From the NCBI RefSeq assembly GCF_014237455.1, contig NZ_JABZFL010000015.1, positions 4,403-68,402 on the forward strand: 64,000 bases of DNA, read 5' to 3'. The position numbers and the translations under genes are program-made. Origin of the DNA: Desulfobacula sp. (GTDB lineage Bacteria; Desulfobacterota; Desulfobacteria; Desulfobacterales; Desulfobacteraceae). The notes under the pieces were generated by a model. That model had not been told where the DNA came from, did no database searches, and was given only the letters and a program-made list of their open reading frames with translations. Shown piece by piece: positions 49,439-64,000 of the stretch (position 1 is its first letter; each line of letters starts with the position of its first letter).

Positions 49439-50692
49439 TTATGGATACTTATTCTTTATAAAGGCAAGGGATTCATCGATCGCGGTCAAGGTGAGATCCA
49501 GGTCTTCTTCGGTGTGTCTGTAGCTGATATAGGCATGGTGAAAGGGGGTGAAAAAGAAACCTTTCCGGATGAGCTGGGTATAAAAATCCCTGCGCTTGCC
49601 TTTGTATGCACCGGTTTCATCCTTTTTAAAGGTGATGTAGAACATGGGGGCAACACCCGTCAGTTCGGCACCCACACCATGTTTGTCAATCACGGTCTGG
49701 ATATTTTTCATGAACCGTTCACCTTTTTCCCATATGTTCTCCAGCACATTGTCCCGCTCCAGGATTTCTATAGTTTTCAGCGCGGCAATAAAGGCCTCGC
49801 TGTTGGGAAAGAATGTGGAAGAAATAAACAGCTTGGATTCAGCCGCCATCATGACCTCTTTTTTTCCGGTCACAACAGAGATGGGATATCCGTTGCCCAT
49901 GGCCTTTCCAAGGACTGTTAAATCAGGGGTTACATTATAAAGTTCCTGGGCGCCGCCCATTCTAAGCCTGAAGCAGGTACGGATTTCATCATAGATAAGG
50001 ACTGCTCCATACTTGTCTGAAATTTTCCTGACCCCTTCAAGGAATCCCGGGGTCGGGGTCTCCATTTTTTGATGGTTGGGATGGCCGAATGGGGTCATAA
50101 TGATGGCGGCGGTATCACCTCCATGAGTGGCCATCAGCTCTTCTAACTGTTCAAGCTTATTGTACTGGAATTCAAAAACGTCTTCATAAAATTTTGACGG
50201 AATCCCCCCTTTCATCTCAATACACCAGTCGTGCCAGCCATGGTAACCGCACCGCATCACCTTGAGTTTATTTGTATGGGCCCTTGCAATACGGATGCTG
50301 GCGGTGGTGGCGTCAGAACCTGTTTTTAAAAAAATGCTCATTTCAGAAGAGGGAACAATCTGGGTCAGCTTTCTGGCAAGTTTGTTCTGAAACTTCTGGG
50401 TCAGGGTGAAACAAAAACCTTTTTCTTTTATTTGTTTGTAAACCGCTGCATCCACCTCTTCTTCCCGGTAACCCAGGATGATGGGGCCGTAACCGCAGAG
50501 AAAATCAATAAATTCATTGCCGTCAACATCAGTCAGATGGCAGCCTTTGCCCTCATCAAGAAAGATGGGATATTCTCCGTCAATAAAATCGCCCGGCTTT
50601 CTGGCACCCAAAACCCCACCGGGGATAAGTGTGGTTGCCTCTTCAAATAATTCCCGGCTTTTCGTGATATTTAGTTTTTCTGTCTCTTTCAT
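49439..50692 (-). CDS. Class III PLP aminotransferase (GSA-aminomutase-like)
   Basis: 'DVDGNEFIDF..GYGPIILG', 'KTGSDAT', 'YHGWHD', 'LIYDEIRT.FR', PLP-Lys 'LGKAMGNG'. Confidence 0.88.
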   Translation of the reverse strand: MKETEKLNITKSRELFEEATTLIPGGVLGARKPGDFIDGEYPIFLDEGKGCHLTDVDGNEFIDFLCGYGPIILGYREEEVDAAVYKQIKEKGFCFTLTQKFQNKLARKLTQIVPSSEMSIFLKTGSDATTASIRIARAHTNKLKVMRCGYHGWHDWCIEMKGGIPSKFYEDVFEFQYNKLEQLEELMATHGGDTAAIIMTPFGHPNHQKMETPTPGFLEGVRKISDKYGAVLIYDEIRTCFRLRMGGAQELYNVTPDLTVLGKAMGNGYPISVVTGKKEVMMAAESKLFISSTFFPNSEAFIAALKTIEILERDNVLENIWEKGERFMKNIQTVIDKHGVGAELTGVAPMFYITFKKDETGAYKGKRRDFYTQLIRKGFFFTPFHHAYISYRHTEEDLDLTLTAIDESLAFIKNKYP

Positions 50693-50713
50693 GGAATACC
50701 TCCTGTGCTAAAC

Positions 50714-51856
50714 TTAAATTTCAAACATGGATGAAATTTTTTGGGTCTGGTGGATTCTGGCACCCCTCTTTAAAAACGCACCAATGAATTTGGCAGGGTC
50801 AATACAGCCTTCCGGGGCCACAACCCCTTTTACGCTCACATCACCGGCATCCATCATAAGTGATGCTATGGAGGCGGGGAGTCCTGTTCCGGGAGCCATT
50901 CTTCCCACCATATCGGCGGTGTAAGTAACTTTTTTACCATCTTTTTTTCCTTTGACAATGACTTTAAGGCCCGAAGACTGGGGGCCGTTATCCCTTCCTT
51001 CAGGGATGGTCTCCCAAAGTTTTAATGCAATATCATAGGGAGTGACCTTGGTTCCCTTGATATCCATAGGTTCGGTGCTTAATAAACCCGTATTTTTCTG
51101 CTCCTGTATCAGTTCATCCACCCATAAAGGAATAAGAGCGCCTTTGATGATGACATTTTTAACCCCTTTAATATATCTTGGAAGGGTTAATGGCTGGGGA
51201 TGTCCCACGTAGCGGACATGGCAGGTGCCAAGGGGGTCAAGAAACTGTTCTGCCGTTTCTTCGGTTCCGCCTTCCACATGGACCAGTTTTCCATCAATAT
51301 ACTGGGGGATTTTCCCCAGGGTCATATGAAGGCTGTGGTCCCATGCAGCGCCTGCAAGTTCGGCAATGCTGACCACCCAGTAAAGATAAATATCATCAAC
51401 ACTGTCCAATTTGTCTGCATACCATTTTACCAGGATATTATTGGTTCCGGGATCAGAGCCCATGCCAGTGAGAACGGTGATGCCTGCTTCTTTTGCCATT
51501 TTATCAATGTCGGAGTTGAAAAGAATCTCGGTCCCTTCATAATCGTCACAGATATCAATATAGTTTACCTTTGCCTCAACCGCTGCTTTTGCGACCGGCA
51601 CGGCAGTCTTGTAAAAGGGTCCGGCACAGTTAATCACCACATCAACCTCTTTGAATGCAGTCACCATGACATCGTGGTTGTTTACGTCCATTTTTATCAG
51701 TGTTGTTTTTTCATTTTCGCGTAATTTTTTTGACAGTCTTTCCGGGTCCGGATACAAGTCAGCTAAAATAACATGTGTAACCTGTTCCTGTTTTATCAGA
51801 TCCCTTGCCACTCCCTGACCCATACCGCCGACGCCGCCTATTATCACTGCACGCAT
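50714..51856 (-). CDS. Saccharopine dehydrogenase/lysine 6-dehydrogenase-like NAD(P) oxidoreductase
   Basis: 'IIGGVGGMG', 'VINCAGPFY', 'NYIDICDD', 'GMGSDPG..N'. Confidence 0.85.
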   Translation of the reverse strand: MRAVIIGGVGGMGQGVARDLIKQEQVTHVILADLYPDPERLSKKLRENEKTTLIKMDVNNHDVMVTAFKEVDVVINCAGPFYKTAVPVAKAAVEAKVNYIDICDDYEGTEILFNSDIDKMAKEAGITVLTGMGSDPGTNNILVKWYADKLDSVDDIYLYWVVSIAELAGAAWDHSLHMTLGKIPQYIDGKLVHVEGGTEETAEQFLDPLGTCHVRYVGHPQPLTLPRYIKGVKNVIIKGALIPLWVDELIQEQKNTGLLSTEPMDIKGTKVTPYDIALKLWETIPEGRDNGPQSSGLKVIVKGKKDGKKVTYTADMVGRMAPGTGLPASIASLMMDAGDVSVKGVVAPEGCIDPAKFIGAFLKRGARIHQTQKISSMFEI

Positions 51857-53193: not shown

Positions 53194-54003
53194 TCAATGA
53201 TTATATTTTTTTAAAATAGCTTCCAGAACACTGCCGCCAATAGCCCGTGCTTTTTCCGAGATTGTGGTGCAATATTGCCTGTTTCCCCTGGGATCAATGT
53301 CACCAAGTTTCAGCTTGTCTGTGACACTGATATTATTTCTTATCCGGCCTCTTAAAACGCCGTCAATCTGAGCAATGACGGGTTTGCCGTCAACATGTCC
53401 CACTACATCATTTTTTTTGACAGGGGTGCCGATGCTTAAAGAAGAGGTGAATATGCCGGAGCAGGGAGAGCGAAGAACCCTTTCTATAGTATACCCGTTT
53501 ATATTGCCGGGGGCTCCGGTATTGGGTTCGGGACAACCCTTTAAAATGAGTCGCCCAAGGTTGTGGCCCCGGTTGGTTTCTATGGCCATATGCACATCTT
53601 TTCCTGCCTCAAATCCAGGCCCAAGTCCGATAACCAAAGGGGCTTCGGATAGGTTTGTCCCCAGGTTTTTTTTGGCAATAATTGCATCAATCACCACATG
53701 GGGCCGAATCGCCTTTATACTTTCCCAATACGGGTCAACAATGACAGGGATACTATTGCTGTCCCAGGCGGTTTGGATGTCATCAAGGTGAAAGACCTTT
53801 TTGGCCGTAACACCTTCCACGATGATTTTTCCATCATGGATTGCCTCGCAGAAGGAAACCCGCCTTCTGACAGCCACAGGGTTTTCGATCTCCAGCATGA
53901 AGATATGTTTAAAATTTGATTGAAAAAGACGGCAGGCAAGACCGGTTGCCATTTCTCCTGCACCTTTTATTGCGATGATAAGTTCTGAGATATTTTGTTT
54001 CAT
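53194..54003 (-). CDS. yqeB: Selenium-dependent molybdenum hydroxylase system protein, YqeB family
   Basis: 'IKGAGEMATG.A..L', 'P.AVRRRVSF.EA', 'GHNLGRLI..G..EPNTG.PG', 'KLGDIDPR', 'KARAIGGSVLEA'. Confidence 0.85.
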   Translation of the reverse strand: MKQNISELIIAIKGAGEMATGLACRLFQSNFKHIFMLEIENPVAVRRRVSFCEAIHDGKIIVEGVTAKKVFHLDDIQTAWDSNSIPVIVDPYWESIKAIRPHVVIDAIIAKKNLGTNLSEAPLVIGLGPGFEAGKDVHMAIETNRGHNLGRLILKGCPEPNTGAPGNINGYTIERVLRSPCSGIFTSSLSIGTPVKKNDVVGHVDGKPVIAQIDGVLRGRIRNNISVTDKLKLGDIDPRGNRQYCTTISEKARAIGGSVLEAILKKYNH

Positions 54004-54007
54004 TGTT

Positions 54008-54730
54008 TTAATGCCCGTATTCACAAAAGGTTGTAAGGTTAAGAATTTTTGCGGGTGCGCAAATGGTCACCCCATAGAAAACAGCAGGCTTGTCCGCATT
54101 AATAAAGTTTGAAATGGTGTTGTTGACAATGGTTGAACCGGTTGCAAATATCATGGTACACCACTTGATCGCCTCTTGGGTATTTTTTTGTGGTTCAATG
54201 GCAATATTGAAAAATTTTTTCCCAATATTGTCCTTGTCCAGATCAACGGCCCGCACCTGGCAATGGGAAGCGAGTGTCTCAAGAAATCTTGGCTGGTGTC
54301 CCACCAGAAGCACCTTTGAATCTTTCGGAATAATGTCAGGCAGTTTCTCGGCGCAAAAAACTGGTTCCTTATCTTTGCAGTGAATGGTTTTGTCAGCAAG
54401 GCCAAGATGTCTGTAAACAGCATTCAACCCTGCAATAAAAGAGGCTCGTTCCCTGTTTGTGGAAAGGTCCATAGTCAAGAGATCTTTAACGCGATATGCC
54501 CTGTTTTCAAATTCATCCGTAAAGCTCTGGCCCTTTGCATTGAGAAAATCAGCCTCAACCATGACTTCTTTGCCTTTGATAATGGGGTAGTCATCATGAT
54601 CAGGATTCCCAATGGCCTGTTCAGCCGAAAGCGCCTTGCACGTGATGTTGATAGGCTGGTCTGCAAGATCATGAAAGATTATTTTTTCTTTTAGAGCTTT
54701 TTTTAAGGCATCATATAGGATAACTGACAT
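54008..54730 (-). CDS. DUF364-like (Rossmann-like, putative heavy-metal chelation) protein
   Basis: 'AIGNPDHDDYPII.GKE..VEA.F....GQSFTD', 'IFATGSTIVNNT', 'FYGVT'. Confidence 0.65.
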   Translation of the reverse strand: MSVILYDALKKALKEKIIFHDLADQPINITCKALSAEQAIGNPDHDDYPIIKGKEVMVEADFLNAKGQSFTDEFENRAYRVKDLLTMDLSTNRERASFIAGLNAVYRHLGLADKTIHCKDKEPVFCAEKLPDIIPKDSKVLLVGHQPRFLETLASHCQVRAVDLDKDNIGKKFFNIAIEPQKNTQEAIKWCTMIFATGSTIVNNTISNFINADKPAVFYGVTICAPAKILNLTTFCEYGH

Positions 54731-55579
54731 TTATATCTCCTTATAGAGGGCATCTCTTTTTTCTTTGTGAGTTTTTATTGCCTTTAAAGTCGGTTGCAAC
54801 AGATAGGTAAAGGCAATCATCATCAGGATAATGCCAAATACTTGTTTAAGATAAAAACCCGGCAGCAGACCGGATATGGCAGAGCCTGTCACAGCGCCTG
54901 CAAGAGACGGGAGAAACAACGCCTTAAACACCTTGAAATTCAAGTTTGCAAGTTTGTGGTGCATGAGTGTGGCAGATTGTGATAAAAAAAACATGGTTGT
55001 TAAAGACAGGCAGATGGCCTGGTGCATGTTAAAATTCATTACAATCACAAAAAACGGTACAATGAGCAGTCCGCAGCCAATCCCCAGCCATGTGGCGATG
55101 ATGCCGATAATAATGCCGAAAGCCATGATAAAAAGGGCTTCATGGGCCCAGGAGATCTCATTGAGATTTGAAAACATTAAAAATGGAAAGTCCACAAATT
55201 TTAAAATCCGAAGGCTTGCAATGAGAAGAAAAACGGCAAAAATCCACTTGAGCCACTGGTTGTTCCATTTATGGATATATTTTGAGCCTATGATGGTACC
55301 AATGACACACATGGGAATAAAAACAAGAAAGTATTTGCCTGAAGGGGGATTGGGAAAAATAAACAAATGAGATACAGCCCCTACAAATGTGATGGGGATA
55401 ATGGTTGCAAGGGAAGTTGCTGCCGCCTGCTTAAAATCAAATTTAAAAATCGATATGAATGTGGAAACAAATATGGTTCCCCCGCCAATACCGATACCGG
55501 CACTGAAAAGTGCCACAAAAAAGCCCAGCAGTCTTAACGCTGTTTTAGGAAAATTTTTAGATGTCTTTACTCTGGACAT
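54731..55579 (-). CDS. TauE/SafE family sulfite exporter-like membrane protein
   Basis: Duplicated 'GIGIGGG' / 'LGIGCG.LIVP' halves with 'A.ATSL' / 'A.CLSL'. Confidence 0.8.
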   Translation of the reverse strand: MSRVKTSKNFPKTALRLLGFFVALFSAGIGIGGGTIFVSTFISIFKFDFKQAAATSLATIIPITFVGAVSHLFIFPNPPSGKYFLVFIPMCVIGTIIGSKYIHKWNNQWLKWIFAVFLLIASLRILKFVDFPFLMFSNLNEISWAHEALFIMAFGIIIGIIATWLGIGCGLLIVPFFVIVMNFNMHQAICLSLTTMFFLSQSATLMHHKLANLNFKVFKALFLPSLAGAVTGSAISGLLPGFYLKQVFGIILMMIAFTYLLQPTLKAIKTHKEKRDALYKEI

Positions 55580-55596
55580 AATGGCCGCCTCACATT

Positions 55597-56616
55597 TTAT
55601 CTTCCGAATGAACAGACAGGATAATGACAGACCTTGCAATTCATGCACAATCCGCCATGACCCATGGCTGCAATATCATCTTCAGTGATTATTTCTCCGG
55701 CCAGAACCCTTGGGAAAATCAGGTCAAACACGGTCTGCTTGTAATAAAACACACAGGCCGGCAGGCTGATAATGGGTATGTCAGCAAGCCGTGAGACCAT
55801 GAGCATGGCCCCGGGAAGAACAGGACTGCCGTAAAATGTAACATCGGCACCCGTCCTGATAACCCCCTGGCGGGTGACATCATCCGGGTCAACGGAAAGT
55901 CCTCCCGTGGTAATAATCATTTCGCATCCCAGTTTTTTTAATTCCAGGATGGCATTGGAAATGGCCTTCTCTTCATCGGGTACGATGATTTTTTTGATGA
56001 GTGTACATCCGGCATCTGTAATTTTTTTCCCGACGGACGGGCCAAAATCATCTGTGATCAGGCCGTTAAAGACTTCAGAACCCGTTACCACAGCACCAAT
56101 TTTTAAGGATTTGTAGGGTTTGACTGAAAGAAGGGTTCCTGTCTTTTTTGTCAGTGTTTCCAAAACTTCAATGTTCTCTGTCGGGATAGTTAATGGAATG
56201 ATCCGAGTGCCTGCAATGATTTCTCCTTTTTTGCAGGGAAAATTATTTTTTAATGTGGCCACAATAATGTTTTCCATTTTGTTGACCTGGAGCAGGGCAT
56301 CAACATTGATTTTTAGCAGGCCTGCATGCTTTGTACTTATATTTATTTTACCTTCCCGGGGTTCAGAAAATTCAAGGTCCTGATCTGAAATAGCACTTGC
56401 TATCCTTTTTGCAGCATCATCTTCATGGAGTTGATCATTTCCAAGATCAAGGACATAGAGATACTGCTTCCCGATTTTTAAAAGTTCCGGAATATCTTTT
56501 TTTTGTATGACATATCCTTTTTTAAATCCAACCCCTTTGAATTTTCCCCGGATGATCCGTGTCATATCATGGGCGAGAACGGTTCCAACTGCATCTTCAA
56601 CTTTGAGCTTTTTCAT
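55597..56616 (-). CDS. Molybdopterin-binding (MoeA/MogA-like) protein
   Basis: 'AVGTVLAHDMT', 'LHEDDAA', 'TGSEVFNG', 'TGGLSVDPDDVT', 'PVLPGAM', 'LPACV'. Confidence 0.85.
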   Translation of the reverse strand: MKKLKVEDAVGTVLAHDMTRIIRGKFKGVGFKKGYVIQKKDIPELLKIGKQYLYVLDLGNDQLHEDDAAKRIASAISDQDLEFSEPREGKINISTKHAGLLKINVDALLQVNKMENIIVATLKNNFPCKKGEIIAGTRIIPLTIPTENIEVLETLTKKTGTLLSVKPYKSLKIGAVVTGSEVFNGLITDDFGPSVGKKITDAGCTLIKKIIVPDEEKAISNAILELKKLGCEMIITTGGLSVDPDDVTRQGVIRTGADVTFYGSPVLPGAMLMVSRLADIPIISLPACVFYYKQTVFDLIFPRVLAGEIITEDDIAAMGHGGLCMNCKVCHYPVCSFGR

Positions 56617-56635: not shown

Positions 56636-58981
56636 TCAATTGACCGCATTATTTTTTGATGTTTTTTTTTCAGCCTGGGCTTTTTTTCCCTTAATGGCGG
56701 CAAGGATTTTGTCCGGGGTTAAAGGAAATGAGTCCATATAGACACCGATGGCATTACTGACAGCTGCGCTGTAGCCTTGTGCCGCCGACATGGCAATGGA
56801 CATGCCGGCTTCCTTGGCCCCGTATGGCCCTTTGGGGTCAATGGACTCCACAATGATAGTATTGATTTTGGGCATGTCACAGGCCAGGGGCAGTTTATAA
56901 TCCAGCATGGTGGGGTTGATGCATCTGCCGTCTTTCCATTCATGATATTCAGTGAGCATACCGCCCTGTCCGCCCATGGTAAGGGCGCCTTCAAACTGCC
57001 CTTCCAGAACCAGGGGATTTATACCATATCCCACATCCTGGGCAGCGGTTGCCTCCAGCACCTCAACCTGACCCGTGTCAGGGTCCACTTTGACTTCAAC
57101 AATAGTGGTGCCGAATGAAAAGGCTTCACACATCTGGCCGTAGGGATTTTTAACCCATTCGCGTTTCATGTCCACTTTGGGCCAGTATCCGCCTTCAGCA
57201 TTAACGGAATTAAAATTCAAAAGGCTGATTCGCACCACCTTTTTAATAGGGATGGATTTTGATGCTTTGCATCTCTTCGAGCCAGGGTCATCTTTGACAA
57301 AAATCAGGCGGTTTTTTGCCGCAAGCTTGTCAGGTTCCACTTTCAACAATTTTGAAGCCACCTCAAAGAGTTTTTCTCTACAGTTCTGTGCTGCGATCTT
57401 CACAGCATGACCGCCCACAAAGGTGGAGACCTGGGAATAGGACCCCGGATCAGAAGACGTGGTCTCTGTGTCGGCCGAAACCAGATGGATGTCTTCGGGT
57501 AAAAGTCCCAGCTCTTCGGCGGCTATCTGGACCAGCATGTTGTCATTTCCCTGGCCGTTATCCACAACCCCTGACATGACCGTTGCCTCCCCGTCTTCAT
57601 TAAACTTGATAAAAGACTGGGAACCACCGCGGATTCCCATGGGAAATCCGGTCTGTACAGAGTTTGTCCCGATACCGATACCATGATATGGGGGTAGTTT
57701 TCCCCATTTTTCCTTGAACCCGGACTTTTCAACAGCCTTATGAATGGTCTCATCCATGGCACAGGAATCGACATAGGATTTTGTACTGGTATATTCACCC
57801 GGCTGCCGGGAATTTCTTAACCTCATCTCCACGGGATCAATGCCAAGATGGTCTGCTATCATGTCCAGCTGGGTATCGAGCCCACAGGCAAATCCCCGTC
57901 CGTGGGTTCTTATCATGCCCCTGATGGGTTTGTTGGTATAAATCCTGTACCCGTTGTACCGAACGCTTTCCATCCTGTAAGCCTGTTCCATGGAAAGAAA
58001 GGGCACGCTTGTGGCAATGGGCCCAGTACTGGAATAGGCACCTCCATCCATATAGCAGGTGGTTTCTCTTGCCAGGACCCTTCCGTCCTTGTCCACCCCT
58101 GTTTTATGGGTGGTGATCATGGCATGCCCCTGTCGGGTGGCAATGGTGTTTTCTTCTCGTGTGAACTGAATTCTGACAGGCCGTTTGGTCTTTTTTGCCA
58201 GAAGGGCACAGATATAGTCTACCGGGCAGATTTCGGACCGGCCCCCGAATGCACCACCAATGGCTATTTTTTTTACTTTTACCTTGTGAAGCGGAAGTTT
58301 GAAAGCATTGGATAACGGTTTGGATTTCATATGGGGTCCGCCGTTAGGACACCAGACCTCCAGGCAGTCTTCATGGTCAAATCTTGCGGCAACTGCATAG
58401 GGCTCAGCCTGGAAATAAGATTCTTCCGGTGCCACATAGGTATCTTCCCTGATATAGTAGGCCTTTTCAAAGTTTTCGTCCACATTTCCCGTATCAATAT
58501 TCACATGGACATTAATATTGTTGGGAAAATCCTCATGGATGAGTTCGGTTTCCGATACCATGGCTTCCATGGGATCAAATACGGGCGGCAGCTCCTCGTA
58601 CGTAACTTCAATGAGATCAAGGGCTTTAAGAGCGGTGTCTTCATCCACAGCCGCCACACCTGCCACTTCATCCCCAATATATCTGACTTTTTCTATCTGG
58701 ATAAATTGTTGGTCCCGGGTATAAGCAAATACTCCCCATTTAACGCCTTTGGTCTCTTTTCCGGTAACAATCGCTTTGACTCCGGGAAGTGCTTCGGCCT
58801 TTGAGGTATCAATATTTAGAATACGGGCGTGGGCATAGGGGCTTCTTTTGATTTTTCCCACCAGCATGCCGGGCAGTTTCAAATCAGCAGTAAACTTTGC
58901 CTTTCCCATGACCTTGGCTCTGGAATCAACTCTGGGCATTCTTTTTCCAACAATAGTATAATCTGAGGTATAATCAGACAT
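56636..58981 (-). CDS. Xanthine-oxidase-family Mo-binding subunit (HcrA-like, atypical active site)
   Basis: 'RSPYAHARI', 'GGAFGGRS', 'GQGNDN', 'SDPGSYSQ', C-terminal 'GPYGAKEAGMS'. Confidence 0.9.
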   Translation of the reverse strand: MSDYTSDYTIVGKRMPRVDSRAKVMGKAKFTADLKLPGMLVGKIKRSPYAHARILNIDTSKAEALPGVKAIVTGKETKGVKWGVFAYTRDQQFIQIEKVRYIGDEVAGVAAVDEDTALKALDLIEVTYEELPPVFDPMEAMVSETELIHEDFPNNINVHVNIDTGNVDENFEKAYYIREDTYVAPEESYFQAEPYAVAARFDHEDCLEVWCPNGGPHMKSKPLSNAFKLPLHKVKVKKIAIGGAFGGRSEICPVDYICALLAKKTKRPVRIQFTREENTIATRQGHAMITTHKTGVDKDGRVLARETTCYMDGGAYSSTGPIATSVPFLSMEQAYRMESVRYNGYRIYTNKPIRGMIRTHGRGFACGLDTQLDMIADHLGIDPVEMRLRNSRQPGEYTSTKSYVDSCAMDETIHKAVEKSGFKEKWGKLPPYHGIGIGTNSVQTGFPMGIRGGSQSFIKFNEDGEATVMSGVVDNGQGNDNMLVQIAAEELGLLPEDIHLVSADTETTSSDPGSYSQVSTFVGGHAVKIAAQNCREKLFEVASKLLKVEPDKLAAKNRLIFVKDDPGSKRCKASKSIPIKKVVRISLLNFNSVNAEGGYWPKVDMKREWVKNPYGQMCEAFSFGTTIVEVKVDPDTGQVEVLEATAAQDVGYGINPLVLEGQFEGALTMGGQGGMLTEYHEWKDGRCINPTMLDYKLPLACDMPKINTIIVESIDPKGPYGAKEAGMSIAMSAAQGYSAAVSNAIGVYMDSFPLTPDKILAAIKGKKAQAEKKTSKNNAVN

Positions 58982-58984
58982 TTT

Positions 58985-59494
58985 TTACTCCTTTGTTTTA
59001 CCACCAGTCTTACAGTCTGGGCAATGGTCCTGTGGATTGCCTGTATGGGCCACGGCTTCAACAATTTTTGCATAACCGGTACACCGGCAGATATTTCCGG
59101 CAAGGGCTTTTCGGACGGTTTTTTCATCGGGCTTGGAATTTTTATTCAGCAGTGCATCGGCTGACATGAGCATGCCCGGGGTGCAGAATCCGCATTGGAC
59201 AGCCCCGTGGTCGATAAAGGACTGCTGAAGATCTGACAAATCATCCTCGGTGGCAAGCCCTTCCACTGTTTTAATCTTTGTTCCTGTGGCTTCCATGGCA
59301 AGAGTCAGGCAGGACCGGACAGGATTTCCGTCCATGTGAACGGTACAGGACCCGCAAACGCCTTCACCGCAACTTTCTTTTGATCCGGTCAGATCAAGCT
59401 CATCCCGCAATACTTCCAAAAGGGTGTCATTGGGAAAGACCCGGACGTCATAGGGTTTATCATTTATATTTAAGGTGATCTTTATTTTTTCCAT
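58985..59494 (-). CDS. 2x[2Fe-2S] subunit (CoxS/HcrC-like)
   Basis: 'CGEGVCGSCTV', 'C', 'QCGFCTPG', 'GNICRCTGY'. Start placed at ATG 59494. Confidence 0.92.
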   Translation of the reverse strand: MEKIKITLNINDKPYDVRVFPNDTLLEVLRDELDLTGSKESCGEGVCGSCTVHMDGNPVRSCLTLAMEATGTKIKTVEGLATEDDLSDLQQSFIDHGAVQCGFCTPGMLMSADALLNKNSKPDEKTVRKALAGNICRCTGYAKIVEAVAHTGNPQDHCPDCKTGGKTKE

Positions 59495-59516: not shown

Positions 59517-60521
59517 TTATTCCCTTGCAGCCAAGGCTGCCTGCTCAAGCGCCTGGAATACCATTTGCGACACCATGGCACATCGGTACTCAAGGGTTGC
59601 GCCCACATTGTGAACGGCAAATGTTGATGCATTATCCATTGCAATATCGGCTGCCCTTTTAAAGGCGACTGTATCAGATAATTTTTTTCCTTTTAAAGAA
59701 GATGATGCCTGGGCAAGGAAGAGAGGCGACCTTCCCATGGCACCGACAACGATTCGCACGTCATCTATTTCATTTTTTTGAGTGTCGGATAGTTTTAAAA
59801 GAACGCCGGCACAGACAATGGGGTAATCAATGGCAGACCGGTAGGCAAGGCGCTTATAGGCACTCTGGGCACCCCCTATGGGTATGATAATTTCTTTTAG
59901 GAGTTCATGGGATTCCATGGCAAAGGGCATGATGCCGTCAGTGGTGTAAAAGTCGGCAAGATCCATGGTTCTCTCCCCGCCTTTTCTTGCCAAAATGATT
60001 TTGGCGTTTAAGGTCATGAGAGCCGTGGCACCGTCTGACTGGCAGGTGGAGTTGCACCGGTCTGCTTCTTCTCGAGCATAACAGATTTTTCCACCATCCT
60101 TGTGGCAGGCCTGGCGCCCGGATCTATGGAAATCCGATTGGTTGTAGTGATGGCACCTATTGTCCTGGAGGATGTTTCCGCCAATGGTACCCCTGTCATG
60201 CTGGATGGTAATGGCCCCGATTTTTTCACATGCCTGGAACAGCGCTTTGGCTTTTTTTTGAATAAGATCCGAAGCAATAATATCTGCTATGGATGTTCTG
60301 GCACCGATTTTAATACATCCGTCTTTTTTATTAATATAGGATAATTCGTTCAAGGCTTTGAGGCTGATGAGAGTTTTTGGTTTTAACAACCCTTTTTTCA
60401 TCCTGACCAGAAGATCCGTTCCCCCTGCAAGGATTTTCGCATCATCCTTGTGAGTGGCTAAAAGGTCAAGGGTTTGATCAAGCGTTTCAGGTCCTAAATA
60501 GTCAAACCTTGGTAACCGCAC
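59517..60521 (-). CDS. FAD subunit with HcrB-type [4Fe-4S] insertion
   Basis: 'AGGTDL', 'GTIGGNILQDNRC', Cys spacing C-x15-C-x7-C-x8-C; GTG start. Confidence 0.88.
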   Translation of the reverse strand: MRLPRFDYLGPETLDQTLDLLATHKDDAKILAGGTDLLVRMKKGLLKPKTLISLKALNELSYINKKDGCIKIGARTSIADIIASDLIQKKAKALFQACEKIGAITIQHDRGTIGGNILQDNRCHHYNQSDFHRSGRQACHKDGGKICYAREEADRCNSTCQSDGATALMTLNAKIILARKGGERTMDLADFYTTDGIMPFAMESHELLKEIIIPIGGAQSAYKRLAYRSAIDYPIVCAGVLLKLSDTQKNEIDDVRIVVGAMGRSPLFLAQASSSLKGKKLSDTVAFKRAADIAMDNASTFAVHNVGATLEYRCAMVSQMVFQALEQAALAARE

Positions 60522-60592: not shown

Positions 60593-61897
60593 TTAATTCA
60601 AGAGGTTCGGTAAAAACAGGACCACTTTCGGGAAAAGCATCATTAAAATTACACAAATAATATAGGCCGGCAGAAAATAGGCAACACCCTTAAACACCCG
60701 TTCAAGAGGCACATCTTTTGCCATGCCGCCAACCACATAGGTGGTAGCCCCCACAGGCGGTGTCACAGCACCCAGTGTGGTGACAATGGTAATGGTGACC
60801 CCGAACCAGATGGGATCATACCCGAGTTCTACGGCCACAGGAAAGAAAATGGGAATCGTGATGAGCAAAAGGGCCAGGGCATCCATGACAGCCCCACCGA
60901 TCATGTAAATTAAAAAGATGATGGCCATGATGGTCAGTTTGGAAAAGGGAAGGGCGACCACCCAGGAGGCAATATCAAAGGGTATTCTTGTAATGGCCAG
61001 AAACCGTCCGAATATCATGGCGCCTGTGATGATCACAATGACCATGCAGGATATTTTCAGGGTGTCGAAAATGGAATTATAAAAATCATTCCAGGAAAGA
61101 TTTTTTTGCACCACGCCGATGACAACGGCAAAGAATGATCCAATGGCGCCTGCTTCTGTCGGGGTGAACAGTCCGAAGTAGAGTCCGATCATGACGACCA
61201 GGAAAAGAATGAGCATTTCAACGGCACCGGTAAGGGATTTTATCTTTTCCTTAAATGTGGTTTTTCCCCCCACAGGCCCCCATTCAGGATAGATGGTACA
61301 AAGCACGTAGACGGTGAGGGTCAAAAGCAGGGCAAGCAGAATGCCGGCACCAAGCCCGCCGTAAAAGAGTTTGGCAATGGACTGTTCCGTGGAAAGCCCG
61401 ATAATAATCAGGACAACACTTGGTGGAATAACTACTCCCAGGGTTGACCCGCAGGCAATGGCTCCTGTGCTGAGCATGGGTTCATACTTGTATTTGTTCA
61501 TCTGGGGCAGGGCAACCGTGGTCATGGTGGCTGCCGTAGCTGCATTGGAACCGCAGATGGCTGCAAAGGCAGAGCATGCCAGGATAGTTGCCATGGCAAT
61601 ACCGCCCCTGACGTGGCCCACCCATTTATAGGCGGCAGTGTAAAGTTTTTCATTGACTCCGGAATAAAAGGCAATCTGGCCCATAAAGATAAACAGCGGG
61701 ATTACTGTCAGCCCGTATTTGGAAAAGGTATCCCATGTGACCGTTGCCAGCATGTTGAATCCTGCAGTAAGAGAAATGACATAGGAAAATCCGCAGAATC
61801 CCACAAGGCCCATGGCAAATCCAACAGGGATGCCGAAGACAAACAGGATAAACAGTAAAGCAAAGATACCGATAATGCCGATCAGGGTGAGGCTCAT
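60593..61897 (-). CDS. dctM: TRAP transporter large permease
   Basis: 'IPLFIFMG', 'CGSNAATAAT', 'GSTLGVVIPPS', 'TPPVG'. Confidence 0.93.
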   Translation of the reverse strand: MSLTLIGIIGIFALLFILFVFGIPVGFAMGLVGFCGFSYVISLTAGFNMLATVTWDTFSKYGLTVIPLFIFMGQIAFYSGVNEKLYTAAYKWVGHVRGGIAMATILACSAFAAICGSNAATAATMTTVALPQMNKYKYEPMLSTGAIACGSTLGVVIPPSVVLIIIGLSTEQSIAKLFYGGLGAGILLALLLTLTVYVLCTIYPEWGPVGGKTTFKEKIKSLTGAVEMLILFLVVMIGLYFGLFTPTEAGAIGSFFAVVIGVVQKNLSWNDFYNSIFDTLKISCMVIVIITGAMIFGRFLAITRIPFDIASWVVALPFSKLTIMAIIFLIYMIGGAVMDALALLLITIPIFFPVAVELGYDPIWFGVTITIVTTLGAVTPPVGATTYVVGGMAKDVPLERVFKGVAYFLPAYIICVILMMLFPKVVLFLPNLLN

Positions 61898-62385
61898 CTG
61901 GAGATCTCCTTTTGCGGCAAAATGGCCTTTAAAAAATCTGTAAAGATCGCCAGGGCAAGAACAAAACAGCCGAATGCCACGGCAAAGGTAAAGGGATAAT
62001 AGATAATTCTCAAGGTTTCGGAGAGTTCACCTGCATTTTTCAGTGTCAAGGCCTTTTGAACAATATGCCAGGAAGCAATGGAAAAGAAGGCACAGCAAAC
62101 CCCGTGGTTAATAATGGATACAATCCGTTTAAGCGGTTTAGGATAGGCATTGACCAGAACATCTACGGAGATATGCCCATTGGTAAACTGGGTGTATCCA
62201 AGGGCAAACGCCGTTACAACCGCCCCGGCATATCCCATGAGTTCAAAAGTGCCTCTGATGGGGATATAAAACTGCCGGATAAAGATGTTGGCACAGGTCA
62301 GAAGAATCATGCCCAGGAGAAATGCACCTCCGGTCAGCGTGAGCAGCTTATTCAAAAATTTATTGATTCTCATTAAAAGATCCAT
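61894..62385 (-). CDS. dctQ: TRAP transporter small permease
   Basis: Four TM helices, 'GHISVDVL'. Confidence 0.9.
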   Translation of the reverse strand: MDLLMRINKFLNKLLTLTGGAFLLGMILLTCANIFIRQFYIPIRGTFELMGYAGAVVTAFALGYTQFTNGHISVDVLVNAYPKPLKRIVSIINHGVCCAFFSIASWHIVQKALTLKNAGELSETLRIIYYPFTFAVAFGCFVLALAIFTDFLKAILPQKEISR

Positions 62386-62401
62386 GTGGAGTCTCCGAAA
62401 C

Positions 62402-62429
62402 CCTCTAACCGCCGCATGGCGGTTAGAGG
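62402..62429. other. Intercistronic stem-loop between dctP and dctQ
   Basis: CCTCTAACCGCC-GCAT-GGCGGTTAGAGG perfect 12-bp stem; no U-tract on the minus strand. Confidence 0.6.
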
Positions 62430-62448
62430 TAATTTGTAAACAAGAAAG

Positions 62449-63459
62449 TTATTGGGCAAAGGCTTTAATATCCTTGATAATCTCTTCTGCAGGAAGGCCC
62501 TTTTCTTTGGCACCTGCAATCCATTTTTCAGTTATAAAATCAAGTTTAGCATCCCATTTGGTTTTTTCTCCGGCTGAAAGAGAGATAAATTCAACATTGT
62601 TGGCCTCTTTTGACCAGGCAATCGATTTTTTAATCTGCTCATCCATGTAAGCCCCGGTCCAGAGAGACTGTTCTTCTTTAAGATCCATCATGACTTTCTG
62701 TACATCAGCAGGTAATGAAGCCCATTTCGTTTTATTCATAATAACAGAAAAGGGGTATAATACCGTATCGGTCATGGTAACATATTTGCAGTTTTCAGCG
62801 AATTTAAAGTCCTTCATGACTTCCAGCGAAGAGAAAAGGCCTTTAACCGTTCCTTTCTGCAAAGCTTCAACAGTTGCCGGCATGGGCATTCCCACAGGAT
62901 TGGCTCCCCAGGCTTTCAGAATCTGGGCGGCACCGCCGGATGCTCTTAAATCCAGCCCCTTGATATCGGCAAGAGTTCTTACCGGAACTTTTGACATGAC
63001 ATTTCCGGGGGCATTGGTAAACATGGCCAGAACAACGACATCCTTAAAAGCTTTGGGTTGATATTTTTCATATAATTTGAGAAGGGCGATGCTGCCTTTT
63101 TTGGCATCCTTGATGCCAAGCGGAAGACTTGTGGCATTGGTGACAATAAATCTTCCCGGTTGATAGGCCATGCAGATATTTCCGATGTCCGACTGCCCTG
63201 CAATAACACCATCCATCATTCCCTTGGCACCCAGAAGGGTTCCGCCGGGGAATGTATTGATCTGGACCTGTCCGTTGGTGCGTTTTTCAACTTCAACTTT
63301 CCATCTTTCCATTTGAACACAGGGGAATGTGGGAGCCGGTGGGAAATTGGCATAATTGAGTTTGATTTTGCCTGCCATTACAGGAGTTTGAAATATTAAA
63401 AGGCAGGTGACAATAGCAAATAAAAAAAGTGTTGCTGAAAAAATTGATCGTTTTACCAT
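62449..63459 (-). CDS. dctP: TRAP transporter substrate-binding protein
   Basis: Signal peptide, 'FPGGTLL', 'LKGL.LR'-like 'IKGLDLRASG', 'GANPVGMPM'. Confidence 0.9.
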   Translation of the reverse strand: MVKRSIFSATLFLFAIVTCLLIFQTPVMAGKIKLNYANFPPAPTFPCVQMERWKVEVEKRTNGQVQINTFPGGTLLGAKGMMDGVIAGQSDIGNICMAYQPGRFIVTNATSLPLGIKDAKKGSIALLKLYEKYQPKAFKDVVVLAMFTNAPGNVMSKVPVRTLADIKGLDLRASGGAAQILKAWGANPVGMPMPATVEALQKGTVKGLFSSLEVMKDFKFAENCKYVTMTDTVLYPFSVIMNKTKWASLPADVQKVMMDLKEEQSLWTGAYMDEQIKKSIAWSKEANNVEFISLSAGEKTKWDAKLDFITEKWIAGAKEKGLPAEEIIKDIKAFAQ

Positions 63460-63538: not shown

Positions 63539-64000
63539 TTAACCGTTTTTATCCTTTAAAGCAGCCAGCACTTTTTCGGGCGTAATGGGGAGATCTTTAA
63601 TCCTGACACCAACAGCATCATAAATCGCATTTGCAATGGCCGGAGCAGTGGGAACACATCCGGGTTCTCCAATTCCCTTGGCACCGAAAGGACCGTCCTT
63701 ATCGTCGGTTTCAATTACCGGAGCTTTGATTTTTACGGCATCTTTGGCAGTAAACAATTTGTAGTCCCTGAAATTAGCGTTCATAATTTCTCCGTCCTTG
63801 ACTGTGACTTCTTCTGTCAAGGCATAACCAAGTCCCATTATAACGCCGCCATAGACCTGGCCTTCAAGGAGCAGGGGATTGATGGCCCGGCCCACATCAT
63901 GGGCTGCCACATATTCAAGGACCTCTACTTTGCCGGTTTCTTCATCCACTTTGACTTTTGCCCCATGGGCACCAAAAGAGTATGTCATGGACATATTTCC
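63539..64000 (-). CDS. Second xanthine-oxidase-family Mo-binding subunit, C-terminal part (5' end outside window)
   Basis: 'HDVGRAINP', 'EGQVYGG', canonical 'GPFGAKGIGEP', 'LPITPEKVL'. Confidence 0.9.
   Translation of the reverse strand, partial: GNMSMTYSFGAHGAKVKVDEETGKVEVLEYVAAHDVGRAINPLLLEGQVYGGVIMGLGYALTEEVTVKDGEIMNANFRDYKLFTAKDAVKIKAPVIETDDKDGPFGAKGIGEPGCVPTAPAIANAIYDAVGVRIKDLPITPEKVLAALKDKNG

Follow-up and report, generated by a model that had tools for sequence, protein, structure and literature searches.

The Mo subunit gene studied here, which lies in a window of 64,000 nucleotides from Desulfobacula sp., codes for a member of the xanthine oxidase / molybdenum hydroxylase family, as judged by the domains, the fold and the molybdenum cofactor (Moco) motifs of its product. 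By sequence comparison this product belongs to an old and separate subfamily in which the conserved active-site Gln is replaced by Gly, Ala or Ser and the catalytic Glu by Met, Leu or Ile; we call the enzyme that lacks both residues the Met-type enzyme. The genomic setting suggests that its operon serves the anaerobic indoleacetate/tryptophan (iaa) pathway of strictly anaerobic Desulfobacterota as an accessory module. The most likely explanation, to which we give a probability of about 0.45, is that the Met-type enzyme is a functional three-subunit reductive enzyme of the 4-hydroxybenzoyl-CoA reductase (HBCR) type that processes 2-aminobenzoyl-CoA and would need no base to activate Mo-OH. Directly observed, and described below, are the two residue replacements and how well they are conserved, the set of subunits with its Cys ligands, and the genomic linkage.

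The 781-aa ORF has the Pfam domains Ald_Xan_dh_C, MoCoBD_1 and MoCoBD_2 (E 1e-26 to 1e-64), and the fold was confirmed by an AlphaFold model (pLDDT 75, pTM 0.79). The best solved relative by sequence was HcrA (1rm6_A, E 7e-127), and 1rm6 was also the best match to the predicted fold (TM 0.81-0.83), which matched 8uem, 1t3q, 1jro and others as well (TM 0.77-0.83); 3HRD is another of the solved relatives. The Moco-binding motifs are present as IGGAFGGRSE (GGxFGG), R358 and NGQGN (GQG) and are invariant in the orthologs. Identity to HcrA was about 35% in the structural alignment, and the score against the NCBIfam model TIGR03194 was 624 bits, below the equivalog cut-off of 994. The other two subunits also missed the HcrABC equivalog level, beta with 193 vs 405 bits and gamma with 169 vs 258 bits (TIGR03193-03195). 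The names that Met-type genes now carry in databases, '4-hydroxybenzoyl-CoA reductase', 'aldehyde oxidase' and 'CO dehydrogenase', are probably wrong.

The first-pass annotation of this DNA had claimed that the C-terminal motif is GAKEAGMS, with Met in place of the catalytic Glu, and we read G721-A-K-E-A-G-M727-S with the ATG exactly at 56803-56801. The paralog fragment at the end of the window does read GAKGIGEP as had been said, and the usual RGFG loop is indeed RTHG (R358-T-H-G), a minor departure because HcrA itself has R-G-H-G. The statement that HcrA keeps the Glu (KEASEG) was also correct, since HMMER paired G720-AKEAS-E726-G of HcrA with G721-AKEAG-M727-S without gaps. In alignments to the solved structures of HcrA, KDH and CoxL, all ungapped, Met727 fell on the catalytic Glu column, and this column holds Glu in 7dqx (GAKGLGE) and 8uem (GAKGIGE). 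No other Glu occupies it: the Glu of KEAG (E724) matches E723 of HcrA, which coexists with Glu726. Nor is the Met specific to one strain, because it was found in 79 of 79 orthologs from distinct species genomes (64-94% identity). It was also found in all 120 of the closest 90%-cluster representatives and in 118 of 118 such representatives in a wider sample, and from these three counts it is neither a chance event nor a sequencing error. Across the family the catalytic column holds Glu in 131 of 148 representatives of 50%-identity clusters. The nearest outgroups of the Met-type clade have Leu, Met or Ile there and are monophyletic with it (support 1.0).

The second replacement affects the conserved Gln close to the apical Mo=O (bovine Gln767, CoxL Gln240, HcrA Gln214). 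This column holds Gln in 118 of about 150 aligned representatives, Gly214 in the Met-type alpha subunit, Ala in two of the three nearest outgroups and Ser in the third; the two paralogs in the same genome retain both Gln and Glu. About 75 additional positions are invariant and specific to the Met-type clade, several of them within the conserved Q-, R- and E-loop motifs, and together with the invariant Moco motifs they point to purifying selection on a remodelled protein. The Glu has been reported to be essential for Mo-OH activation in hydroxylases (PMC13653126, PMC10420851), and a literature search for a described Glu-less enzyme of the xanthine oxidase family found none. The suggestion that the replacement signals new chemistry at Mo is supported so far as sequence can show, because the exchange is ancient and invariant, the Gln is lost as well, and the Moco motifs and the electron chain are kept.

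The other possibility that had been raised, a non-catalytic or structural partner of the second Mo subunit, found no support. The Met-type alpha subunit has its own FAD/[4Fe-4S] and 2x[2Fe-2S] subunits (Table 1), and in beta the alignment runs through the loop of 1rm6_B and pairs Cys123, Cys139, Cys147 and Cys156 with the four Cys of the [4Fe-4S] cluster in HcrB. The gamma subunit likely starts at the ATG at 59494, and the listed TTG ORF from 59644 is probably too long. A complete alpha-beta-gamma unit with the four Cys of the HcrB type argues for an HBCR-type enzyme and against a structural role beside the canonical Mo subunit encoded nearby. Furthermore, 14 of the 33 informative loci, for example those of NaphS2 and Syntrophorhabdus, have no second Mo gene for at least 7 kb upstream of the Met-type gene. 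That the protein is a catalytically dead pseudoenzyme, acting as a structural or electron-relay partner of the canonical enzyme, is thus highly improbable, even though two residues held to be essential are gone and a canonical paralog is adjacent in the window: to the full set of redox subunits and the stand-alone loci is added the invariance of the Moco motifs and of the active-site-region residues across orthologs with 64-94% identity, and real decay, as in the Mo-gene copy on another contig of the same genome (C92), looks truncated and frameshifted. To our knowledge, the one enzyme described to date with a [4Fe-4S] beta subunit is the reductase whose electron flow is inverted, as reported with the HBCR structure. 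The Met-type enzyme is probably ferredoxin-driven, judging from its predicted cluster ligands.

Table 1. Features of the Met-type operon and its surroundings (window positions; loci are the 80 related loci)
Feature	Position	Strand	Remark
Class III aminotransferase, glutamate-1-semialdehyde aminomutase-like, 417 aa	49439..50692	(-)	in 50/80 loci
Saccharopine-dehydrogenase-like NAD(P) oxidoreductase, 380 aa	50714..51856	(-)	in 51/80 loci
Thiolase-family protein, 395 aa	51947..53134	(-)	in 24/80 loci
YqeB, selenium-dependent molybdenum cofactor maturation	53194..54024	(-)	TIGR03309, 359 bits vs cut-off 220
DUF364 ('putative heavy-metal chelation') protein	54008..54730	(-)	none at equivalent place in related loci
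TauE/SafE-family membrane protein (anion exporter family)	54731..55648	(-)	none at equivalent place in related loci
MoCF_biosynth-domain protein (molybdopterin-binding)	55597..56616	(-)	follows Mo gene in 17/80 loci
Alpha (Mo) subunit, 781 aa	56636..58981	(-)	HcrA-like, Glu-less and Gln-less (Met-type)
Met727 ATG codon	56801..56803	(-)	position of catalytic Glu (HcrA Glu726, bovine XDH Glu1261)
Arg358 of R-T-H-G loop	57908..57910	(-)	family R-G-[FYH]-G; Arg conserved
Gly214 GGC codon	58340..58342	(-)	position of conserved Gln (HcrA Gln214; 'sTQxP' motif)
Gamma subunit, 169 aa, two [2Fe-2S] domains	58985..59494	(-)	Fer2 + Fer2_2
Beta subunit, 334 aa, FAD-binding, HcrB-type insertion	59517..60521	(-)	alignment with HcrB
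Beta Cys123 codon	60155-60153		
Beta Cys139 codon	60107-60105		
Beta Cys147 codon	60083-60081		
Beta Cys156 codon	60056-60054		
TRAP transporter	60593..63459	(-)	DctM 60593-61897, DctQ 61894-62385, DctP 62449-63459; Pfam
Canonical XDH-family Mo subunit, C-terminal part	63539..64000	(-)	Gln and Glu kept, GAKGIGEP

Directly upstream and on the same strand are genes for a CoA ligase, hydantoinase-like proteins, an XDH-type hydroxylase, a B12 mutase, a CoA transferase, a decarboxylating acyl-CoA dehydrogenase and ETF. The canonical Mo subunit, 789 aa in full with the rest beyond the window, is the last gene of this iaa-like cluster. In about 28 of the 80 loci the Met-type operon comes immediately after genes for hydantoinase-like proteins, a CoA ligase similar to PaaK and a canonical XDH, some of these loci having TRAP genes as well, and one locus has an aminotransferase, indolepyruvate:ferredoxin oxidoreductase and TRAP genes upstream instead. 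With an iaa-type hydantoinase-B ortholog as the marker of the pathway and 151 genomes of the order as the sample, the marker was present in 12 of 12 Met-type genomes vs 18 of 139 others (30/151 in total; Fisher p = 5e-10), and in 9 of the 12 it was on one contig with the Met-type gene; 18 of the 30 iaa-positive genomes are without the Met-type enzyme, which counts against the explanation favoured here. The Met-type gene was found in 12 of the 151 genomes and in 5 of 41 Desulfatiglandaceae. Because of this patchy presence we rejected a housekeeping role, which might have been suggested by the 86-92% identity between genera and by the housekeeping genes nearby in NaphS2 and Syntrophorhabdus. Since the enzyme is confined to anaerobes with genes for auxin (indoleacetate) degradation, it probably catalyzes a non-hydroxylating, reductive step there. 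At one locus (L069) a PEP-synthase-like gene upstream was considered as part of an aniline (ani) cluster, and this was rejected because NCBIfam identified the gene as ordinary PEP synthase-like, with a photolyase and kinases alongside.

Beta-oxidation of 2-aminocinnamoyl-CoA gives 2-aminobenzoyl-CoA. The iaa pathway has been described as far as 2-aminocinnamoyl-CoA, and iaa operons have been predicted in Desulfatiglans anilini, NaphS2 and other sulfate reducers (PMC8360864); 2-aminobenzoyl-CoA has been reported as the end product (PMC9613470). In D. anilini, HBCR-annotated proteins were at least 100-fold up with aniline and 4-aminobenzoate as substrates, showed no such induction with phenol or benzoate, were absent from phenol-grown cells, and were proposed to be a 4-aminobenzoyl-CoA reductase (PMC7500099). 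One of the D. anilini sets has a beta subunit of 332 aa (H567DRAFT_03876; 35.887 kDa, pI 8.94), the size of the insertion-bearing type. The absence from phenol-grown cells speaks against the Met-type enzyme being a plain dehydroxylating 4-hydroxybenzoyl-CoA reductase of obligate anaerobes, that is, an HcrA ortholog that tolerates Met for Glu, and so do the low bit score, the low identity to HcrA, the more than 100 Glu-containing 50%-cluster representatives that outscore HcrA against the query, and the strict nesting in iaa-positive genomes. No phenol, p-cresol or 4-hydroxybenzoate genes were seen beside Met-type loci. This alternative does have HcrA as both the top family model and the top solved structure, the HcrB-type [4Fe-4S] loop, the annotation used by many databases, and the fact that the hosts (Desulfobacula, Syntrophorhabdus and NaphS2 relatives) degrade phenolic or other aromatic compounds; on balance we regard it as quite unlikely.

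YqeB is encoded four genes downstream of the Met-type gene, and YqeB, YqeC and SelD are all present in the genome. Together with the tandem of Met-type and canonical enzyme in one super-operon, and with some Syntrophia loci in which the Met-type enzyme is the sole Mo enzyme seen beside iaa-type genes, this could mean that the Met-type enzyme works oxidatively, as a hydroxylase or dehydrogenase, elsewhere in the indoleacetate/tryptophan pathway, for example for a second ring hydroxylation, with another group or a YqeB-supplied selenium ligand replacing the Glu. We consider this unlikely. YqeB was found downstream in 15 of 19 tandem loci vs none of the 14 stand-alone loci; thus it tracks the tandem arrangement, selenium may serve the neighbouring canonical enzyme, and the case for selenium dependence of the Met-type enzyme is weakened. 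Moreover, selenium-dependent nicotinate dehydrogenase keeps the Glu, and the [4Fe-4S] beta subunit is not known outside the reductase with inverted electron flow. The reported need for the Glu in Mo-OH activation also counts against an oxidative enzyme (PMC13653126, PMC10420851).

The class III aminotransferase gene was present in 7 of 12 Met-type genomes and in 0 of 139 others (p = 3e-9), and in the order sample it and the saccharopine-dehydrogenase-like gene occur solely alongside the Met-type enzyme. Both adjoin the Met-type gene in 50-51 of the 80 loci, stand-alone loci included, and in distant taxa both are better conserved than the Mo subunit. These observations raise the question whether the Met-type enzyme works with this pair on an amine or aldehyde that is non-aromatic or lies in a side chain, either by oxidizing the arylacetaldehyde formed from transaminated tryptamine-type amines or by dearomatizing the ring of aminobenzoyl-CoA, after which the now-aliphatic amino group would be removed by the aminotransferase or the dehydrogenase. 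This is also rather unlikely, although less so than an oxidative role elsewhere in the pathway. Both genes are missing in 5 of the 12 Met-type genomes and in about 30 of the 80 loci, and the Mo enzyme can thus do without them; aldehyde oxidation in the xanthine oxidase family is Glu-dependent too, and we know of no precedent in this family for ring reduction without elimination. Against the reductive reading that we favour, the pair would have no role in a simple reductive deamination with release of NH3, a hint that the amino group may stay on the product in aliphatic form or that another substrate is used. Also against it, TRAP transporter genes are repeatedly fused to the Met-type operon, and to its Leu-type sister operon in NaphS2, with no CoA ligase dedicated to them, and so the substrate could be a free acid; the best solved relatives of DctP in the window were 4n6d, 4pgn/4pgp and 4nap.

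For the reductive HBCR-type enzyme that we favour, we infer the following electron route, substrate and reaction. As in HBCR, low-potential electrons would be taken up by the additional [4Fe-4S] cluster and pass via FAD and the [2Fe-2S] clusters to Mo, which would reduce an amino-substituted aromatic CoA ester. The likeliest substrate would be 2-aminobenzoyl-CoA, the iaa end product, or 4-aminobenzoyl-CoA in aniline degraders, and in a Birch-like reaction the amino substituent would be reductively removed or processed. If no oxygen atom is moved to or from Mo-OH, the base Glu and the oxo-anchoring Gln would be dispensable and could be replaced by apolar residues. Reductive chemistry alone does not predict loss of the Glu, because HcrA and the urolithin dehydroxylase are both reductive and keep it. 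More specifically, and tentatively, the Gly214/Met727 Mo site, possibly with a thioether or selenium contribution, may reductively cleave the aryl C-N bond, which would make this clade the long-sought aminobenzoyl-CoA reductase (deaminating) of strict anaerobes; this is possible but doubtful. Schnell and Schink (1991; cited in PMC7500099) are said to have measured such an activity in cell extracts in the early 1990s, and we know of no purified enzyme to which it has been assigned.

The active-site Glu has been regarded as universal and essential in the xanthine oxidase family (PMC13653126, PMC10420851), and both characterised reductive members of the family retain it. A widespread and strongly conserved clade without Glu and Gln, but with the cofactor and electron apparatus, is a natural experiment on the roles of these residues and on the capabilities of Mo-pterin. 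Its nesting in gene sets for anaerobic auxin/tryptophan degradation offers a specific candidate for what becomes of 2-aminobenzoyl-CoA, and possibly of 4-aminobenzoyl-CoA, in sulfate-reducing and syntrophic bacteria, and the clade defines a set of substrates for testing. If aryl C-N cleavage proves true, this would be the first molybdoenzyme of the family to dispense with the canonical machinery for oxygen-atom transfer.

Among known systems, HcrABC of Thauera aromatica (1RM6/1SB3) is the closest. It shares with the Met-type enzyme the alpha-beta-gamma architecture, the top match in sequence and fold, the R-x-H-G loop together with the GAKEA motif, and a beta insertion that provides the four Cys of an additional [4Fe-4S] cluster; it differs in having Gln214/Glu726 where the Met-type has Gly214/Met727, in overall sequence (about 35% identity; 624 vs 994 bits), and in context, which for the Met-type is indoleacetate/tryptophan degradation and not phenol/4-hydroxybenzoate. 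The putative 4-aminobenzoyl-CoA reductase of D. anilini (H567DRAFT_03875/76, 03202-04; from proteomics only, PMC7500099) is a candidate counterpart; it is HBCR-annotated, comes from a related sulfate reducer, is induced by amino-aromatic compounds, and its proposed reductive deamination is the reaction proposed for the Met-type enzyme. Urolithin C 9-dehydroxylase of Enterocloster is likewise a family member that works reductively on an aromatic substituent, but its catalytic Glu (E741) is retained and reported to be essential (PMC13753352), and it differs in its free polyphenol substrate, its electron-input module and its taxa. The selenium-dependent molybdenum hydroxylases, namely, nicotinate dehydrogenase of Eubacterium barkeri (3HRD) and purine hydroxylase, are similar in that YqeB, YqeC and SelD are present in the Met-type genome, but for the Met-type YqeB accompanies solely the tandem loci with a canonical Mo enzyme. 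Both are hydroxylases that retain Glu and Gln. The Mo-dependent indoleacetate/indoleacetyl-CoA hydroxylase of the Aromatoleum iaa operon belongs to the same pathway context, and its counterpart is likely the canonical paralog upstream. The iaa operon of this denitrifier reportedly has a single XDH-type enzyme. In comparison, the Met-type enzyme comes as an additional module, and it was found in strict anaerobes only.

The gene for the Met-type molybdenum subunit codes for a 781-residue protein with all three domains of the xanthine-oxidase-family molybdenum subunit, and its C-terminal motif is G721-A-K-E-A-G-M727-S, the ATG for Met727 lying where the first-pass annotation had placed it. When this motif was aligned by HMMER with three solved enzymes the alignment was ungapped and the active-site Glu fell in the Met727 column in all three, namely, GAKEAS-E726-G in HcrA of 4-hydroxybenzoyl-CoA reductase (HBCR; 1rm6_A), where retention of the Glu had been claimed correctly, GAKGLG-E in 6-hydroxypseudooxynicotine dehydrogenase (7dqx), and GAKGIG-E in CoxL (8uem). 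The alignment does not place the Glu of KEAG, E724, at the catalytic position. HcrA has this Glu too (E723), besides Glu726, so that E724 does not stand in for the missing residue. The nearby paralog fragment does have the canonical GAKGIGEP. The RGFG loop does read RTHG, as had been pointed out, but this is a minor deviation because the Arg is retained and HcrA itself has RGHG. A second residue is also replaced: Gly214 stands at the Gln position of sTQxP (HcrA Gln214, which corresponds to bovine Gln767 and CoxL Gln240). Both other full-length family members of the same genome keep the Gln and the Glu.

Met727 is not a strain-specific mutation. Of the 90%-identity cluster representatives, the 120 closest (86-92% identical) all carry GAKE[AS][GA]MS, and Met is present in 118 of 118 proteins in a wider sample of cluster representatives. 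A species-level scan, with one genome per species, gave 181 relatives; 80 loci were kept and 79 orthologs (64-94% identical) were recovered, every one with GAKEA[GA]M[SA]. They occur in Desulfobacula, Desulfotignum, Desulfatiglandales, strain NaphS2, Desulfarculaceae, Syntrophus, and Syntrophorhabdus. A 94%-identical copy on a 3.3-kb contig (JAIWHJ010000331.1) of a 'Promethearchaeota archaeon' MAG most probably stems from contamination in binning. At 50% clustering, 148 of the 150 best representatives are full-length, and 131 of these have the Glu. Those closest to the query, three proteins at 53, 50, and 44% identity, carry Leu, Met, and Ile in the Glu column and Ala, Ala, and Ser in the Gln column, and form one clade with it (support 1.0). 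A sister branch of two representatives has lost the Gln and retained the Glu, which suggests stepwise remodelling. Some 75 other positions do not vary within the clade and are rarely found in that state outside it, several of them lying in the conserved Q-, R-, and E-loop motifs. Judged from sequence, this is the conservation pattern of a functional, specialised enzyme rather than of decay. A second Met-type copy in the same genome, 84% identical, is decayed: it is N-terminally truncated, starting at about residue 298, and has a frameshift near residues 670-719, and GAKEAGMS is still readable. Ahead of this copy lie an XDH-family gene with both Gln and Glu, a PaaK-like ligase, TRAP genes, and a response regulator. 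The family has other members without the Glu and/or the Gln: 39 of the 148 full-length representatives, all uncharacterised (P0122-P0271), deviate at one or both columns, with Gln/Glu pairs near the branch such as Q/M, M/S, M/M, Q/Q, and Q/R. Active-site variants appear common among uncharacterised members. Our literature search turned up no description of a family enzyme of this kind.

Two explanations had been offered for the Met, new chemistry at Mo or a structural partner of the second Mo subunit. The latter is not supported because genes for its own 2x[2Fe-2S] and FAD subunits lie ahead of the Mo gene and because 14 of 33 informative loci stand alone, with no second Mo gene for at least 7 kb upstream. 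In the FAD subunit the alignment with HcrB runs through the inserted loop, and the four Cys of the extra [4Fe-4S] cluster are all there. Of the solved structures, HcrA ranks first both in sequence (E 7e-127) and in predicted fold (TM 0.81-0.83; model pLDDT 75). Since all three subunits score far below the NCBI HcrABC equivalog cut-offs, and more than 100 Glu-containing representatives outscore HcrA against the query, the enzyme is of HBCR type in architecture and not an HcrA ortholog. At the level of sequence, new chemistry at Mo is supported by the invariant Met, the loss of the Gln, and the intact Moco-binding motifs, and the predicted protein is best described as a molybdoenzyme of HBCR type whose active site has been remodelled.

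Features of the window, of its own genome, and of a related locus
Feature	Location	Remark
Met-type Mo subunit gene	window 56636-58981 (-)	Met727 codon 56803-56801
Canonical paralog, fragment	window 63539-64000	C-terminus of a 789-aa protein
TRAP transporter	window, upstream of FADi-FeS-Mo (core operon for FAD, [2Fe-2S], and Mo subunits)	precedes operon
MoCF_biosynth-domain protein, TauE, DUF364, YqeB, thiolase, saccharopine-dehydrogenase-like protein, class III aminotransferase	window, downstream of Mo gene	operon continuation
TauE/SafE-family and DUF364 genes	window 54008-55648	inserted between MoCF_biosynth-domain gene and yqeB
yqeB	window 53194-54024	above cut-off
Aminotransferase and adjacent dehydrogenase genes	window 49439-51856	
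iaa-like cluster (L001)	own genome C48:67000-86999	directly upstream of window end; same strand as operon
selD	own genome C37:10289-11212	one in-frame TGA; selenocysteine-type
yqeC homolog	own genome C56:4824-5477	above cut-off
Decayed Met-type copy	own genome contig C92, L002:7568-9012 (+)	
Sister-subfamily locus (L086)	NaphS2 contig C746:8204-10483 (-)	Mo-FAD-FeS-DctPQM, TetR regulator

The nearest relatives of the TRAP binding protein are 4n6d, 4pgn/4pgp, and 4nap, the latter solved with indole-3-pyruvate, indole-3-acetate, and tryptophan. The L001 cluster is complete, with a canonical XDH-type enzyme, PaaK-like CoA ligase, hydantoinase A/B-like proteins, B12 mutase and MeaB, GntR, acyl-CoA dehydrogenase, EtfAB with a ferredoxin domain, family III CoA transferase, and an indolepyruvate-type 2-oxoacid:ferredoxin oxidoreductase. 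This gene content is that of the anaerobic indoleacetate (iaa) pathway, which has been described and for which operons have been predicted in D. anilini, NaphS2, and other sulfate reducers (PMC8360864). Among the 80 related loci, the dehydrogenase and aminotransferase follow the core in 50-51, and hydantoinase, ligase, and canonical XDH, with or without TRAP, precede it in about 28, Syntrophus-type genomes included. In one Desulfobacula locus the upstream genes are instead those for an aminotransferase, an indolepyruvate oxidoreductase, TRAP, and an FrhB-like protein, and in a Syntrophia-type locus CoA transferase, MeaB, acyl-CoA dehydrogenase, and ETF adjoin the operon. By tblastn, TauE/SafE and DUF364 genes were found at the corresponding position in none of the 80 loci; they may have a role in the handling of anions (selenium, molybdate, or sulfite). 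The NaphS2 locus belongs to a 52%-identical sister subfamily in which Leu replaces the Glu in relatives (GAKEGGLT in locus L085).

In a sample of 151 genomes spread evenly over the order, the iaa-type hydantoinase-B ortholog is present in 30 and the Met-type subunit in 12, all within those 30 and nine on the same contig (p = 5e-10). This nesting makes it an accessory catabolic module of the iaa pathway; a housekeeping role was rejected on the 12/151 count and its presence in 5 of 41 Desulfatiglandaceae genomes. The aminotransferase ortholog is in seven genomes, all among the 12 (p = 3e-9), and in the order sample it and the adjacent dehydrogenase gene occur only with the Met-type gene. They are thus accessories of the Met-type enzyme in turn. 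In distant taxa, conservation of the aminotransferase (73-80%) exceeds that of the Mo subunit (65-68%).

YqeB, YqeC, and Sec-containing SelD, all three genes of the selenium-cofactor trait, are encoded in the genome. A yqeB gene follows the Met-type gene (loci L005-L084) in 15 of 19 loci with an upstream canonical enzyme but in none of the 14 stand-alone loci (p = 6e-6). Since YqeB tracks the canonical enzyme, selenium may serve that hydroxylase, or both enzymes, and the iaa-type hydroxylase may be selenium-dependent.

In the hydroxylases the Glu takes the proton from Mo-OH, which then makes a nucleophilic attack (PMC13653126, PMC10420851). Hydroxylation by an enzyme lacking both this Glu and the Gln is unlikely. 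The HcrB-type cluster suggests that electrons enter from a low-potential donor, as they do in HBCR, and the obvious substrate offered by the pathway context would be 2-aminobenzoyl-CoA, in which the iaa route ends and which strict anaerobes must handle. We know of no enzyme identified for its reductive deamination. In D. anilini, HBCR-annotated proteins are at least 100-fold up on aniline and 4-aminobenzoate and not on phenol or benzoate, and have been proposed to be a 4-aminobenzoyl-CoA reductase (PMC7500099). Based on the loss of Glu and Gln, the cluster, the pathway context, and this induction, we favour, at slightly under even odds (about 0.45), a Birch-like reductive processing of an aminobenzoyl-CoA with no oxygen atom passing through Mo. 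Three points do not fit this reading. The tightly linked aminotransferase and dehydrogenase would have no role if NH3 were simply released. The operon is repeatedly fused to TRAP with no dedicated CoA ligase, as is the Leu-type sister operon of NaphS2, near which no CoA ligase lies, and the substrate could therefore be a free acid. Lastly, both HcrA and urolithin dehydroxylase retain the Glu where this enzyme has Met.
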